Source of the DNA: Candidatus Poribacteria bacterium
GTDB lineage: Bacteria > Poribacteria > WGA-4E > PCPOR2b
NCBI GenBank assembly: GCA_965116925.1
Contig: OZ220744.1
Location: forward strand, 4,704,001 to 4,768,000
Length of the DNA: 64,000 nucleotides
Direction: 5' to 3'
Part shown: in pieces, positions 16,702 through 44,804 of the stretch
Position numbering within the stretch: the first letter of the stretch is position 1
Layout: the number at the start of each line of letters is the position of its first letter
Notes under the pieces: generated by a model
Database searches by the model: none
Told to the model about the DNA's origin: nothing
Seen by the model: the letters and a program-made list of their open reading frames with translations, nothing else
Program-made: the position numbers and the translations under genes

Positions 16702-17262
16702 TCAGAGAAACGCCTTCTCTCTCGCTTCCGCCGAGCTATCCCACGCACGGTCATATTCATAATCGTCCCGACGCGCCAACAGTGCCCGTAAATCGTGTCG
16801 CAGCTCCTCCACGGTAGGCCTTCCAACAAACCACCAACCGTTGTAAATCTTGTAGATCTCGCGATCGCTGTCAAGAACGAAGGTATAAGGGATGGGAATC
16901 GGAGAATGGTTGGGATCCGTGTTGTCTACGATGTCTAATTCATTGATCAACGCCCGATCAAGGTCAATCAGGAAGGGCCACGTCGCACCGATACGCTCAC
17001 GAAGTGCCCTCGTTGTTTCCTCATCATCGACGGAGACAGCGATTAGCCTACAGTAGTTGACCTCCAATTCGGGCTGCAAATCCTTTGCATAATTCTCCAA
17101 CTGGAGAACATCCTTCGGTCAATATGCCCCACGCCAAAAGACCAAGATTGTGGGCCAGCCACGCATCAAATCCTCCAGCGTTCTGATTATGCCATCCTGA
17201 TCGGGACGTTCAAAGTTTGGGAATTTGTTACCGGATATCATCAAATCTTCACGGATTTTCAT
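16702..17262 (-). CDS. AhpC/TSA-family redoxin, probable selenoprotein (RGAY-U-PKD, Sec48)
   Basis: AAGGAGG RBS then ATG 17262: MKIREDLMISGNKFPNFERPDQDG...PTILVFWRGAY-TGA(17119-17121)-PKDVLQ, in frame with ORF 16702..17100; hairpin follows. Confidence 0.85.
17093..17108 (-). promoter_or_regulatory. Candidate bacterial SECIS for TGA 17119-17121
   Basis: Stem TTCTCC/GGAGAA, loop AGTT starting 16 nt after the UGA. Confidence 0.6.
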
Positions 17263-39870: not shown

Positions 39871-41139
39871 ATGATCGAAATCCAACCCCTCCAAGAACCA
39901 ATCAACACAACAGTCACAGTGCCCGGTTCAAAAAGCTACACCAATCGGGCATTGCTTGTCGCTGCGCTGGCTGAAGGACGTTCTCAATTGACAGGTGCCC
40001 TTTTCAGCGATGATACCCACTATATGTTTCAGGCGTTGCGGAAACTTGGCGTGGGGATCGAGGCGGATGAGGAAGACTGTTCATTTCAAGTAGTCGGAAA
40101 TGGCGGAAAGATTCCTGTCGATCACGCTGAACTCTACATCGGCAATGCAGGCACAGCAGCTCGTCCGCTCGTCAGTTATGTTGCACTCGGCAACGGTGAA
40201 TTTATTATTGACGGCGATGCGCCGATGCGTCGGAGTCGTCCTATTTCGGACCTGCTTGACGCGCTCAAGCAACTCGACGTTGATGTACGTTCAAAATTCG
40301 ACAACGACTTTCTGCCGTTAATTGTTCGAGCAAACGGACTCAAGGGGGGAAAAACCCGCCTCGATGCCAGCAAGAGCAGTCAGTTCTTGACTTCGCTTAT
40401 GCTCGTCGCTCCCTATGCGGAAAAAGGGATGGCGATTGAGGTTTGGGGGGAGATGAAGACACCCTACATTGACATCACTACTTCAGTGATGAAAGGGTTC
40501 GGTGTGGACGTGGCTCACGACAACTACAAATCCTTTCACATTGAAGGTGGACAACGTTACCAACCCCGCGAATACGCCATCGAGCCAGACGCTTCCAATG
40601 CCTCCTATTTCTTCGCTGCGGCTGCGGTCACCGGTGGTCGCGTCCGGGTGACTAACCTTAGCACAGATTCCGCACAGGGCGATGTCCAGTTCGTCAATGT
40701 GCTAGAACAGATGGGCTGCCAAGTGCAACGCTGCGGCGATGATATAGAAGTTATTGGACCAGAACGGCTCAAAGGAATTGATCTGGATATGAAAGCGATC
40801 TCCGACACATCGTTGACTCTCGCCGCAATTTCCCCCTTTGCGGAGAGCCCAGTGACCATTCGGAATATAGAACATACGCGCTATCAAGAAACAGATCGCA
40901 TACATGCCATGGTCACAGAACTCCGAAAACTTGGTGTCCCTGTCGTTGAACGTCAAGATGGGGTTGAGATTTCACCCTCTCTAATTACGCCTGCGGAGAT
41001 TGAAACATATAAAGACCACCGGGTTGCAATGAGTTTTTCGCTGATTGGATTGAAAGTGCCGGGGATTCGGATTAAAGATCCGGGGTGCGTAAGCAAAACC
41101 TTTCCGACTTTTTTTGATGTGTTGGCAAGATTGAGGTAG
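39871..41139 (+). CDS. aroA: 3-phosphoshikimate 1-carboxyvinyltransferase
   Basis: PGSKSYTNR, GNAGTAAR, SSQF, ETDR, DHRVAMSF, KTFP. Confidence 0.97.
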   Translation: MIEIQPLQEPINTTVTVPGSKSYTNRALLVAALAEGRSQLTGALFSDDTHYMFQALRKLGVGIEADEEDCSFQVVGNGGKIPVDHAELYIGNAGTAARPLVSYVALGNGEFIIDGDAPMRRSRPISDLLDALKQLDVDVRSKFDNDFLPLIVRANGLKGGKTRLDASKSSQFLTSLMLVAPYAEKGMAIEVWGEMKTPYIDITTSVMKGFGVDVAHDNYKSFHIEGGQRYQPREYAIEPDASNASYFFAAAAVTGGRVRVTNLSTDSAQGDVQFVNVLEQMGCQVQRCGDDIEVIGPERLKGIDLDMKAISDTSLTLAAISPFAESPVTIRNIEHTRYQETDRIHAMVTELRKLGVPVVERQDGVEISPSLITPAEIETYKDHRVAMSFSLIGLKVPGIRIKDPGCVSKTFPTFFDVLARLR

Positions 41140-41311
41140 AGGGCGATGAGCACCCTAAACAAAGAAGGTAGAGGATAGATGAAAGGTGTTATTTGGACGG
41201 TGGACTAATGATCTAAGGCATGAATATGTGGATAGTTGGCTCGCGGACAAAACGCGAGGCCGAATATGTATAGTTGGCAAATCTGCAGATTCATTTTAGA
41301 GGAGGTACACA

Positions 41312-42307
41312 ATGTTACGTACTTTAATTGGCTGCATCATGATTGTTTTTATGTTCGTAATTATCAGCGCAATAAGTGCAAAGGAGAAACAGATGGAAAC
41401 ATTCAAAGATCTAAAAGTTGGCATGGCAGCACCAGATTTCGCACTCAATGACGGAAATGGAACTGCCCACAGCTTACGCGATTATCTGGGGGAAAAGAAT
41501 GTCGTCTTGGCGTTTTATCCCAAAGACTTCACCGGCGGCTGAACGACAGAACTCCGCTCGCTCCGGGATGAGTTGAGCCAAATTCAGGGGACAGATACAG
41601 TCCTTTTGGGTGTCAGCGTTGATGATGAAGCCTCTCATAAAAAGTTTCAAGAGGAAGAAAATTTTGGATTCCCTCTACTCGCTGATACGGAATTCGCAGT
41701 CAGCAAGGTCTATAGCGGCATCATGGATAGATTTAAGGCTTCTAACCGATCGACCTTCATTATTGACAAAGCAGGATACATTCGTGCAATAGATCGAAAC
41801 GTGAACACGCAAACGCACGGCGAGGATCTCGTTAAACTAATCAATGAAAGCATTCCGGGACCGATTCAGGTCGGACAGCCTGCACCAGACCTTATCGCTT
41901 CCGATCAGGATGGCAACACCTATCAACTCAGCAGCTTCGAGGGGAAAAAGAACGTTGTGCTGGCGTTCTATCCCAAAGATTTCACCGGAGGCTGAACGGC
42001 AGAGGTATGCTCGCTCCGGGATGAGTCGAGTACATTTGCTGAACATGATACACAGGTCTTTGCAATTAGCGTACAAGATGCAGCGTCTCATAAGAGGTTT
42101 GCTGAAGAAAATAATCTTAACTTTCCATTGCTAGTGGACACAGGACGTCATATTAGTTTGCTCTTCGGTGCGACGGACAAACCGGACGGTTTGAGCAGTC
42201 GCATAACGGTTGTCATCGACAAAGACGGAAAGATTATCAAGCTCGATAAACAGGTCAACGCAAGGACACACGGCAAAGACCTAGCTGATTTCTTTGAGGC
42301 GATGTAA
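41312..42307 (+). CDS. Exported tandem two-domain peroxiredoxin (BCP/PrxQ-like), probable di-selenoprotein (Sec77, Sec228)
   Basis: One frame from ATG 41312 (GAGGAGG RBS) to TAA 42305-42307 with TGA at 41540 and 41993, both in YPKDFTGG-U-T (peroxidatic PxxxTxxC position); signal-peptide-like N-terminus; hairpins after both TGAs. Confidence 0.9.
41556..41578 (+). promoter_or_regulatory. Candidate SECIS for TGA 41540-41542
   Basis: GCTCGCTC-CGGGAT-GAGT(T)GAGC; loop starts 21 nt after the UGA. Confidence 0.7.
42008..42032 (+). promoter_or_regulatory. Candidate SECIS for TGA 41993-41995
   Basis: TGCTCGCTC-CGGGAT-GAG(T)CGAGTA; loop starts 21 nt after the UGA. Confidence 0.7.
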
Positions 42308-42447
42308 TCTGCGCGAAAGATGGTACTTCTAAAGCCGAATTGCGAATCTAATTCACGCTGATAGCGCCTTCCATATCGGGCAAAGAATTACTTTACAATT
42401 AGCTACAATATGTGTATACTAATACCCTTGCGGGGTGGGGAAAATCT

Positions 42448-42963
42448 GTGAGAAATATTGTCCTGGTGGGTTTCATGGGAACAGGTAAGACCTCAGTGGG
42501 GAAAAGACTTGCCGAGCGTCTAGGGATGCCGATGATCGATACAGATGATATAATCGCAGAAGATAGCGGAATGGATATCCCCGACATCTTCGCTCGGTAT
42601 GGCGAACCGCACTTTAGGGATTTAGAGAGCACAGCTGTTTGTAAGGCAGCGAATCTAGAGAACCATGTGATCTCAACAGGCGGTGGGGTCGTCCTTCGAG
42701 AATCAAATTTGGATATGCTCAAGCGCAACGGTATTGTCTTCTGTTTGACAGCAACAACAGCAGAGATTTGGCGGCGTGTTAGGAGCGGAACCCATCGTCC
42801 GTTGCTGCAAGCACCCAATCCATTGGGTAGGATCGAGCAGATGCTTATAGAACGTCGTCCCTTTTATGCTCGCGCTGATCACCAGATCGTAACCACAGGA
42901 CTATCAATTAAAGCGGTTACAGATAAAATTGTAGGGATATTTCATTCCGAAAGAATCCTTTAG
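42448..42963 (+). CDS. aroK: Shikimate kinase
   Basis: NIVLVGFMGTGKTSVG, GEPHFRDLE, STGGG, RPLL. Confidence 0.95.
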   Translation: MRNIVLVGFMGTGKTSVGKRLAERLGMPMIDTDDIIAEDSGMDIPDIFARYGEPHFRDLESTAVCKAANLENHVISTGGGVVLRESNLDMLKRNGIVFCLTATTAEIWRRVRSGTHRPLLQAPNPLGRIEQMLIERRPFYARADHQIVTTGLSIKAVTDKIVGIFHSERIL

Positions 42964-43263
42964 AACTTGTTTTAACAAGCAAGAAACAATCCCATGGTGC
43001 TGTGGATTTGTCAATCCACAGCGAGCCGTATCGCAGGGTAGGAGTTGGTTTTCCTAACCCGTCAGGCGAGGGGACCTCGCCTCTACGAAATCAAGCTCCT
43101 ACGATTGACCTGACACGGTTTCCTAAATTATAGCGCGAATGTGCCGCTGAGTAGTAGATTACGGAAGAAACCGAGTTTTGAAGAAAAAACTCGGTTCAGG
43201 GCAAATAACTTTACCCCAAATGGCTTTTCAAAGCTGAAAGGCCTTGCCCAGAGAAATTGATAT

Positions 43264-43704
43264 ATGAACATCTCACTGATTCACGGACCCAACCTTCAAC
43301 TCTTGGGAAGACGACAGCCTGAAATTTACGGTAGCCAGACGCTGGATGACATCAATTTACACCTAATCGAAATCGCTGCGGGACGAAGCGTTAATCTCAA
43401 GATTTTTCAGGCAAATTCCGAAGGTGAAATTGTCTCCTTTATTGGGGACAATATCGACTGGGCGGATGGCGTTATTATCAATCCTGCGGCTTACACGCAT
43501 ACGAGTGTCGCAATCCGGGATGCTCTGTCCGCTGTCAATCTCCCTGTTATTGAGATCCACCTCTCTAACGTGCACACCCGCGAGTCTTTTCGCCAGCATT
43601 CTTACATTTCTCCTATCGCTGTCGGTGTGATTTGTGGATTTGGGGCGCATGGCTATGATTTGGCGTTGGACGCGATGATTCAGGTTTTGCAGCAGGCAGA
43701 TTGA
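43264..43704 (+). CDS. aroQ: Type II 3-dehydroquinate dehydratase
   Basis: HGPNLQLLGRRQPEIYG, INPAAYTHTSVAIRDA, EIHLSN. Confidence 0.97.
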   Translation: MNISLIHGPNLQLLGRRQPEIYGSQTLDDINLHLIEIAAGRSVNLKIFQANSEGEIVSFIGDNIDWADGVIINPAAYTHTSVAIRDALSAVNLPVIEIHLSNVHTRESFRQHSYISPIAVGVICGFGAHGYDLALDAMIQVLQQAD

Positions 43705-43775
43705 TAGGATCGAGGAAAAGCAGATGAGAACAATTTTGGATACTTATTTTTTGAAAAGTGGAAAAGGAGAATTTT

Positions 43776-44333
43776 ATGGCAGCACTCAATGACTTACGAA
43801 ACGGTTTAGTTGTCCGACTCGATAACGTTATGTACACCATTACCGATTGTCAACACGTTAAGCCCGGCAAAGGGGGTGCATTTGCTCGTACAAAACTCAA
43901 GCGGGTCACCGACGGAGCAGTTATCGATCGGACGTTCCGTTCAAAAGACACAATCGAAACCGTTCGCCTTGAAGAACGTGATATGCAATATATGTATAGT
44001 GATGGAACGCTGTTATACTTCATGGATAACGAAACCTTTGAGCAAAATCAACTACCGGAAAACCTCCTGAACGATGGAATGAAGTTCCTCAAGGAAGGAG
44101 AAACGATCCGAGTCAAAGTTGACGAGAATACCCCTGTGGCGATCGAATTACCGACATTTGTAGAACTTAAAATTGTTGAAACAGATCCCGGCTTACGCGG
44201 CGATACCGCCAGCGGCGGGTCAAAGCCAGCAACGCTGGAAACAGGCGGGGTGGTCCAAGTGCCCCTATTTGTTGAAAATGGTACGACAATCAAGGTTGAT
44301 ACCCGTACAGGAACATATGTAGAGAGGGTTTAA
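43776..44333 (+). CDS. efp: Elongation factor P
   Basis: HVKPGKGGAF, PGLRGDTA, KPATLETG, VPLF, DTRTG.YVER; AAGGAG RBS. Confidence 0.97.
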   Translation: MAALNDLRNGLVVRLDNVMYTITDCQHVKPGKGGAFARTKLKRVTDGAVIDRTFRSKDTIETVRLEERDMQYMYSDGTLLYFMDNETFEQNQLPENLLNDGMKFLKEGETIRVKVDENTPVAIELPTFVELKIVETDPGLRGDTASGGSKPATLETGGVVQVPLFVENGTTIKVDTRTGTYVERV

Positions 44334-44336
44334 TCG

Positions 44337-44804
44337 ATGCCGAGAGAAAAATCACCATCCGCTACAGAACTCCTGCAACAAGTCTGCGACATCATGGAAG
44401 AGCGAGATTTGACAGAGGTGCTTCTGCGTGAGGAAGGTATTACTTTGAAGGTCCGGCGAGGCAGTGAACCTGTACCTGTCGCGTTTTCGCAGCCAAGCGA
44501 CATGGTGCCCTTACCAGGTGCGGAACAGGTCGAGTCTTCTGCGGCACCGCTGTCACCAGAAGTGGGAGAACTCGTACGGTCACCGATGGTAGGACTGTTT
44601 TATGCGTCACAATCGCCGGAGGCTGCGCCTTATGTGGAAGCTGGAAGCGTTGTATCCGAAGACGATACTTTGTGCTTGATTGAAGCGATGAAAATTTTCA
44701 ACGAAGTCAAACCGGATTTTCCCTGCGAGATTCTTGAAATTCTCGTTGAAGATACAACGACCGTTGAGTTTGATCAGCCCCTGTTCCGCGTGAAACGGGT
44801 ATAA
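44337..44804 (+). CDS. accB: Biotin carboxyl carrier protein
   Basis: SPMVGLFY, EAMKIFNEV, VEFDQPLF. Confidence 0.93.
   Translation: MPREKSPSATELLQQVCDIMEERDLTEVLLREEGITLKVRRGSEPVPVAFSQPSDMVPLPGAEQVESSAAPLSPEVGELVRSPMVGLFYASQSPEAAPYVEAGSVVSEDDTLCLIEAMKIFNEVKPDFPCEILEILVEDTTTVEFDQPLFRVKRV

Follow-up and report, generated by a model that had tools for sequence, protein, structure and literature searches.

Two in-frame UGA codons in a conserved tandem peroxiredoxin gene of Poribacteria: a probable exported double selenoprotein

Does a reading frame that is interrupted twice by TGA encode one protein or only pieces of one? The question is raised by the locus at positions 41312..42307 of a 64,000-nucleotide stretch from the genome of a Candidatus Poribacteria bacterium (assembly GCA_965116925.1, contig OZ220744.1, positions 4,704,001 to 4,768,000 of the forward strand; hereafter the window, whose numbering is used unless a genome position is stated). 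A preliminary description of this locus, made from the letters of the window, had proposed an exported tandem peroxiredoxin with two selenocysteine (Sec) residues. Our analysis strongly favours one intact gene, predicted to encode a two-domain peroxiredoxin selenoprotein of the BCP/PrxQ type with two UGA codons read as Sec, a hairpin of its own for each UGA, and a leader peptide for export; taken separately, the use of Sec in each domain, read from UGA with its own RNA hairpin, is very likely, and the protein is probably exported.

The window translation follows a single frame from ATG 41312 to the TAA at 42305-42307 (331 residues; forward strand, as for all features of the gene), in which the only stops are TGA 41540-41542 (residue 77) and TGA 41993-41995 (residue 228), just as had been described. 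A Shine-Dalgarno-like AGGAGG (41300..41305), identified by direct reading of the sequence, lies 6 nt upstream of the ATG. Under translation table 11 the gene falls into three pieces, namely 41312..41542 (76 aa), 41573..41995 (140 aa, TTG start) and 42128..42307 (59 aa, TTG start), which is the fragmented annotation that had been anticipated; the segment past the second TGA, reported as missing from the list of open reading frames (ORFs), is mostly uncalled, with only 42128..42307 listed. A scan for promoters and terminators at the locus gave counts not above those of shuffled sequence.

The uninterrupted translation was found to contain two peroxiredoxin domains. Pfam AhpC-TSA (PF00578) matched the protein in two stretches (240.5 bits, E 3.9e-72) and the halves shared 49% identity across 140 residues (E 6e-47), confirming the suggested internal duplication of a BCP/PrxQ domain. 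Domain 1 (approximately residues 33-180; 41408..41851) was assigned to the BCP/PrxQ type by Pfam, NCBIfam and a fold match to BCP/AhpE, and domain 2 (residues 184-331; 41861..42304) by Pfam, the internal repeat comparison, NCBIfam and its fold match. The motif FYPKDFTGG-U-T occurs at both TGA sites and corresponds to the P...T..C peroxidatic motif, with Cys homologs aligning there, so that both TGAs do fall at the peroxidatic Cys position: UGA 1 (41540..41542) would encode Sec77 and UGA 2 (41993..41995) Sec228. The active-site triads of the window translation are P70/T74/U77 and P221/T225/U228; in a 26-row alignment T74, C(U)77 and R146 were invariant, and P70, P221, C(U)228 and R297 nearly so.

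The two domains differ in their candidate resolving residues. Atypical 2-Cys BCPs carry a resolving Cys five residues after the peroxidatic residue, and BCPs of the 1-Cys type exist too. Domain 2 is of the U-x4-C type, its candidate resolving residue being Cys233 (codon TGC, 42008..42010), five residues past Sec228; this is the sole Cys in the mature part of the window protein and is Cys in all 39 of the tandem orthologs described below (TGC in 37, TGT in 2). Domain 1 is of the 1-Sec type without a resolving Cys, position +5 from Sec77 being R, Q or E in 37/39 orthologs and Cys in 2/39. The NCBIfam search returned no dedicated model for the tandem protein, each domain lying nearest BCP/PrxQ at ~88 bits; the whole protein reached 171.6 bits with NF006960 (cut-off 140) because the two domain scores (87.6 and 89.4 singly) add up, and 170.5 bits with NF053650 (cut-off 260). 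An AlphaFold2 model based on the 26-row alignment (predicted local distance difference test, pLDDT, 91.8; predicted template modelling score, pTM, 0.85) comprised two peroxiredoxin (Prx) folds in a defined mutual orientation. Each modelled domain matched BCP, AhpE or BcpB chains (target TM 0.82-0.89), and no solved chain in the structure comparison spanned both domains.

Conservation of the two codons carries much of the argument. In a six-frame stop-readthrough search of 41 related genomes (13 genera, 4 families), the top match in 39 genomes was the tandem gene, carrying two TGAs in frame (52-93% protein identity), and the remaining two genomes gave single-domain forms. TGA occupied both alignment columns in 39/39 aligned tandem orthologs, and these positions lie opposite Cys residues of the relative P0124; at this range of identity such agreement is far beyond chance. 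A scan of the phylum covered 176 genomes, 159 in the window's order and 17 outside it. Within the order, 147/159 genomes carried a full-length match (E <= 2.4e-103) with at least two in-frame TGAs, five held single-domain forms only, two gave partial matches and five lacked any match at E <= 1e-25; beyond the order, a tandem-level match was absent from all 17 genomes.

The whole coding sequence (CDS; 41312..42307, 331 codons plus TAA) is kept full length with both TGAs in relatives, and third-position substitutions predominate. Differences per codon at positions 1/2/3 amounted to 0.28/0.25/0.49 before the first TGA, 0.22/0.14/0.52 between the two and 0.23/0.15/0.49 after the second, and the synonymous share of single-base codon changes was 62%, 78% and 74% in segments 1, 2 and 3, respectively; the segments past each TGA have therefore been selected at least as much as segment 1. 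Furthermore, an independent contig from a close strain (runs X1 and X2) that spans 41200-42400 showed 31 differences, all listed, with none in either TGA, which speaks against the sequencing error that had been considered at the outset; by our own arithmetic, 26 of its 28 CDS differences lie at third codon positions. Contigs of run X5 bridge each TGA but were not used for the letters at the TGAs, and the parts that they leave uncovered carry no meaning. At 41973 loose contig ends in runs X5 and X19 diverge into ...LDFTGG-TGA-QR, another TGA-bearing Prx-type gene from another paralog or organism of the same communities. In two orthologs, L046 (G026) and L062 (G101), the 5' region holds a third TGA in frame, which probably precedes the real start codon.

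Homologs hold Cys or TGA at both UGA positions and never a real termination, as would be expected from the first account: the Cys homolog P0028 reads FYPKDFTGGCT, and Cys residues of P0124 align to both U positions. No natural Sec/Cys swap was found among the orthologs. Full-length relatives in a collection of 5.8 billion proteins (P0002-P0018) carry W at both sites, which we infer to reflect the use of a TGA=Trp code in translating short contigs, and the best match in a library of 1.84 billion representatives is a 140-aa fragment covering residues 88-227. With the gene split or truncated in public calls and Trp at the catalytic sites of its full-length entries, an antioxidant enzyme that is conserved in a major phylum of sponge symbionts goes effectively unseen. 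A tandem paralog, L061 (G092:C108; also P0019/P0020), has Ser at site 1 within a decayed motif (FCPTDFLIGST); its domain 2 keeps the TGA and U-x4-C, and no leader is evident. Single-domain Sec-PrxQ genes comprise L057, L058 and L059 (G011, G005 and G022), which have a leader, resemble domain 1 and are nested in family f1, and L060 (G023), a leaderless form that resembles domain 2 and branches as the sister group of the second domains as a whole. The tandem form is apparently absent from genus g5.

Each UGA is followed by a conserved hairpin resembling a selenocysteine insertion sequence (SECIS). Hairpin 1 (41556..41578; GCUCGCUC, loop CGGGAU, GAG-U-UGAGC) begins after a 13-nt spacer past the UGA and is kept throughout the order, and hairpin 2 (41997..42041) consists of a core at 42009-42031 (GCUCGCUC, CGGGAU, GAG-U-CGAGU) together with a lower stem. 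With the U of UGA numbered 1, the stem at both sites is formed by positions 17-24 on one side and by 31-33 plus 35-39 on the other, U34 is bulged, and the loop CGGGAU lies 21 nt from the UGA. Rules of the bSECISearch type place the apical loop 16-37 nt from the UGA, with a G among the first two loop bases; both hairpins fit them by distance and by loop. Hairpin 2 has a minimum free energy of -18.3 kcal/mol (z -2.14), with 8/200 shuffles folding equally well. Over 82 sites, 63 of them distinct, 91.7% of cells were paired compared with 23-40% when the partner was slid by 1-3 columns, and the covariation score was matched by 8/500 shuffles.

Because this covariation is modest, the case for the hairpins rests more on conservation and on the suppression of synonymous change. 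Synonymous diversity at codons +5 to +12 was 0.21 at site 1 and 0.16 at site 2 as against 0.45 (s.d. 0.17) elsewhere in the gene; when 298 eight-codon windows were ranked, 10 of the lowest 12 fell right behind the two UGAs, and a six-fold-degenerate Leu codon past the UGA is always CTC in sequences with Leu there. Synonymous suppression is thus a stronger sign than covariation of an RNA constraint behind each UGA. Six f2 loci have AAA/AAU in place of GAG at site 1, with loss of the apical pairs, and a new 3' arm, GAGCGAC, gives a 7-bp stem in another register.

A common origin of the two UGA-plus-hairpin units is indicated by the domain phylogeny. In a maximum-likelihood tree of the separated domains, with support from the Shimodaira-Hasegawa-like approximate likelihood ratio test (SH-aLRT) and with row L055 (in-frame TAA) left out, first domains formed one clade (SH-aLRT 95) in which three single-domain copies and the G092 paralog's first domain are also placed, and second domains formed another (91) that includes the leaderless g5 single-domain form and the second domain of the same paralog. 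Cys outgroups fell outside the domain 1 and domain 2 clades (95), and the order of families was broadly repeated within each clade. These relationships fit a history in which a Sec-PrxQ unit was duplicated once, complete with its UGA and hairpin, ahead of the radiation of the order, with partial copies and losses coming later. Bacterial SECIS elements sit within the coding sequence, and a domain duplication therefore copies the recoding signal too; a coding-region SECIS that is copied with its domain would let multi-Sec proteins arise in a simple way, in contrast to eukaryotes, whose shared SECIS lies in the 3' untranslated region.

The genome, assembled as a single contig of 6.47 Mb, holds a complete set of genes for Sec insertion. 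selA was found by genome profile search (532 bits) with the wing domain of selB directly adjoining it, and a tRNA-Sec with anticodon tca (c[2373929,2374022]; 1 of 48 tRNAs) lies beside selB, the three being contiguous on the minus strand (genome 2373929-2377236). selD (369 bits; genome 6018631-6019551) has an in-frame TGA of its own at 6018658 (context KTCG-U-AAK). The selA, selB, selC (tRNA-Sec) and selD genes to which the preliminary description had pointed are therefore all present. In the same genome, TGA closes 897 of 3017 stop-to-stop frames of at least 300 codons, and it terminates three of the eight neighbouring window genes whose stops were read; TGA is so common as an ordinary stop that there is no reassignment in the genome.

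Residues 1-23 (MLRTLIGCIMIVFMFVIISAISA; 41312..41380) form a predicted signal peptide of the Sec-translocon type with a candidate cleavage site ISA/KE. It was called by our own heuristic of hydropathy and a small-x-small site, which is not a trained predictor. The hydrophobic core of the leader reaches a Kyte-Doolittle 11-residue mean of 3.48 and is kept in 36/39 orthologs despite sequence drift, and by the same heuristic a small-x-small site and an acidic mature N-terminus come after it in most cases; retention of the core while the sequence diverges argues for selection on the leader. The AlphaFold2 model places residues 1-26 in a helix of reduced confidence (block means 62-65) and shows residues 19-30 (pLDDT <50) as a disordered linker. 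No twin-arginine motif was found in the leader. A lipoprotein reading of LIGC (residues 5-8) was rejected, its Cys being too near the N-terminus and unconserved beyond the genus.

Several observations weigh against an exported, doubly recoded protein and have to be set beside this evidence. The predicted stability of hairpin 1 is ordinary (-11.2 kcal/mol, z +0.48, with 128/200 shuffles folding equally well), double-sided changes occur at only 2/8 pairs, a count matched by 242/500 shuffles, and part of the SLRD motif occurs in Cys homologs too. An Rfam scan of 41200-42400 at E <= 10 returned no SECIS family, giving chance matches to small nucleolar and long non-coding RNAs below gathering scores. 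Of the original claim that each UGA has its own SECIS, the conserved hairpin past each stands, qualified by the ordinary stability of hairpin 1 alone and by the modest covariation. The domain tree comes from a quick search, its branches supported by SH-aLRT alone, and no redox partner gene lies near the tandem gene in the window. The X1/X2 contigs come from RNA libraries and are long (4.8-5.7 kb); DNA carry-over is possible, and they count as confirmation of the sequence, not as proof of transcription. In one ortholog, L055 (G039), domain 1 is interrupted by an additional in-frame TAA; this copy may be a pseudogene, or its assembly may be at fault. The case for Sec and for a full-length product is built on sequence. 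As for the leader, the signal peptide was scored by our own heuristic, 3/39 orthologs lack the hydrophobic core given their starts as called, and f4 orthologs have no clear small-x-small site.

These last points bear on an alternative in which the two-Sec peroxiredoxin is real but not exported, being held by an uncleaved membrane anchor or started at Met28 as a cytoplasmic enzyme. The internal Met28 (KQ-M-ETF) is conserved within the genus, the f4 forms without a clear cleavage site could be membrane anchored, and genus g5 has a leaderless single-domain form. Nevertheless, the hydrophobic core persists in 36/39 orthologs though the sequence around it diverges, the AGGAGG stands 6 nt upstream of ATG 41312 and the Cys-type tandem relative P0124 likewise bears a leader; we therefore judge this alternative unlikely, though it keeps a real share of the probability. 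The cleavable signal peptide that was first proposed is a candidate in the window protein, with its ISA/KE site and widely kept core, and its site is unclear in f4 forms.

The UGAs might alternatively be sites at which translation mainly ends, at one or both, with the full-length protein a minor or selenium-dependent product and the codons serving as a selenium switch. Sec insertion competes with release factor 2 (RF2). Recoding efficiency in Escherichia coli is reported as 30-40% in the abstract of PMC4513850, and two sites multiply the loss; the ordinary stability of hairpin 1 points the same way. A 76-residue product would however consist of the leader and half a fold, and a 227-residue product would stop one residue short of the second active site. 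Purifying selection on segments 2 and 3 is at least as strong as that on segment 1, which is sensible only if the full-length protein is selected, and the paralog with Ser at the first site still keeps its second TGA. Termination as the main outcome is thus improbable, and full-length Sec-containing translation is preferred.

Readthrough with insertion of Trp or Cys in place of Sec, through a near-cognate tRNA or reassignment, is even less probable and would be a marginal outcome. Public gene calls of relatives do show W at both positions, and the evidence for selenium in the polypeptide is indirect. Those W calls would, however, result from a gene caller that switches a short contig to a TGA=Trp code, and TGA ends 897/3017 long frames and 3/8 neighbour genes, as it does four of the tandem orthologs themselves. 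Trp at the peroxidatic position would be lethal to a peroxiredoxin, yet the catalytic motif and the Arg are conserved, and the complete Sec machinery accompanies a conserved hairpin at SECIS distance. That the gene is a decaying pseudogene, or that its TGAs are sequencing or assembly errors, is extremely improbable and effectively refuted by conservation and the independent contig: although standard annotation yields three fragments and one ortholog has an extra TAA, the same two codons recur in 39/39 orthologs and in 147 genomes from many assemblies, the independent contig keeps both, and the frame shows no frameshifts and predominantly third-position substitutions.

Other thioredoxin-fold genes of this genome also contain TGA. 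The window holds a second candidate selenoprotein of the AhpC/TSA family on the minus strand (16852-17232), with TGA at 17119-17121 in the context TILVFWRGAY-U-PKDVLQ and a hairpin ~12 nt past it. AhpC/TSA-family loci at genome positions 996583, 1526723 and 2097953 have one in-frame TGA each (WU-GSC, WU-PNS and YU-PHC), with downstream hairpins. In selD and in the four other TGA-bearing AhpC/TSA-family loci of the genome, a hairpin follows shortly past the TGA in each case. TGA occurs in 7 of the 20 AhpC/TSA matches of the genome, a proportion which suggests that Poribacteria carry a selenium-rich thiol-redox proteome.

The tandem gene sits between aroA (39871-41139) and aroK-aroQ-efp-accB (42412-44804). 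This placement is common to only ~14/80 related loci; the gene has therefore moved within the phylum, and aroA and aroK-aroQ were rejected as operon partners. Genes for thioredoxin, DsbD or a reductase were absent from the flanks of eight other loci. Directly 3' of the tandem gene, four f2 loci (L092:3991-4602; L118:3985-4599; L142:3997-4602; L098:4027-4638) encode a conserved multi-pass membrane protein (~204 aa) that matches no Pfam family. Its homolog in the window genome (214259-214828, 49% identical, with one in-frame TAA) is ~4.5 Mb from the tandem gene, and the protein was set aside as a linked partner here.

Under the established bacterial mechanism, SelB-GTP with Sec-tRNA(Sec) would be recruited twice on one mRNA, by a hairpin 13 nt past each UGA, and Sec would be inserted at residues 77 and 228, the peroxidatic positions of both domains. 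The leader would route the protein via the Sec translocon to the periplasm, where each domain would reduce peroxides, at Sec77 and at Sec228. Domain 2 (U-x4-C) would probably be recycled through an intramolecular selenenylsulfide with Cys233. The resolving Cys of domain 1 has been lost in most lineages, which implies a 1-Sec working mode, and this domain may be reduced by an outside thiol or by domain 2. A bolder picture, which we offer tentatively and consider possible but short of an even chance, is that Poribacteria routinely complete two SelB/SECIS recodings 453 nt apart on one mRNA and so make an exported pseudo-dimeric peroxidase whose 1-Sec domain and Sec/Cys domain cooperate in fixed orientation. 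One form of such cooperation, which we hold just as tentatively, is that domain 2 or a periplasmic Sec-containing thioredoxin-like partner recycles domain 1.

Were the cooperative picture correct, the gene would report naturally on how efficient and processive Sec insertion is in bacteria, and it would illustrate how simple domain duplication, with a coding-region SECIS, gives rise to multi-Sec proteins. Two UGA-plus-SECIS units have been kept across ~150 species, which indicates that double recoding is efficient enough to be selected, and the gene may offer a naturally occurring means of measuring how processive SelB-dependent decoding is. Together with the further thioredoxin-fold genes that carry TGA, an exported selenium peroxidase suggests a periplasmic redox defence based on selenium, the proposed setting of which is that of symbionts within a heavily oxygenated, filter-feeding sponge. 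The value of the finding lies in annotation and mechanism rather than in fundamental surprise.

Comparison with known systems places the protein among established enzymes. Sec-peroxiredoxins (PF00578, TxxU) are a long-known selenoprotein family, listed with one Sec in the accessible parts of PMC13188914 and PMC2398784. With these bacterial and marine-metagenome proteins, as far as those sources extend, the tandem protein shares PF00578, the P...T..U motif, Sec in place of the peroxidatic Cys and a SECIS right past the UGA; it differs in having two Prx domains, two Sec codons, two SECIS-like hairpins and a leader. PrxU of Eubacterium acidaminophilum is an experimentally studied Sec-peroxiredoxin (cited in the consulted text of PMC13188914) and is likewise a thioredoxin-fold peroxidase with Sec at the peroxidatic site. 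Against its model, NF040737, the tandem protein scored 135.5 bits and its domains 68.2 and 68.8 (cut-off 270); these values are far under the cut-off and the domains are closer to BCP/PrxQ, so it is not a PrxU. A literature search of full texts, as distinct from supplementary tables, which may list such genes, returned no description of a tandem or two-Sec peroxiredoxin, and Poribacteria are mentioned once as Sec users, for a hydrogenase, in the part of PMC13582414 that was available. The enzyme type is known, and its doubled two-Sec form seems to be undescribed.

The best family and fold match for each domain is to BCP/PrxQ (NF006960, NF053650; Sulfolobus Bcp1, 3drn; Mycobacterium tuberculosis AhpE, 1xxu), although the domains singly reach 87-89 bits and so stay below the 140-bit cut-off. 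Domain 2 has the same C(U)-x4-C spacing as atypical 2-Cys BCPs, whereas the tandem protein has Sec instead of Cys, a fusion of two domains, a leader and a domain 1 without a resolving Cys. P0124, a Cys-type tandem PrxQ of 375 aa from a metagenome, has the same leader and two PrxQ domains (32% identity over 326 columns), but Cys at both sites, CxxxxC in both domains and longer inserts; its two domains group together and not with domains 1 and 2, so its duplication was probably independent, the branches being long. Bacterial double selenoproteins such as MbdU, MduS and UXX-star fusions have been catalogued, and these share with the tandem gene more than one UGA read as Sec per bacterial ORF; their folds and motifs differ, and none of those given in the accessible text of PMC13188914 is a duplicated peroxiredoxin. 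The architecture was therefore fairly called unusual, but it is not unique: an exported tandem PrxQ exists in Cys form as P0124, and other bacterial families with two Sec residues are recorded in that same text.

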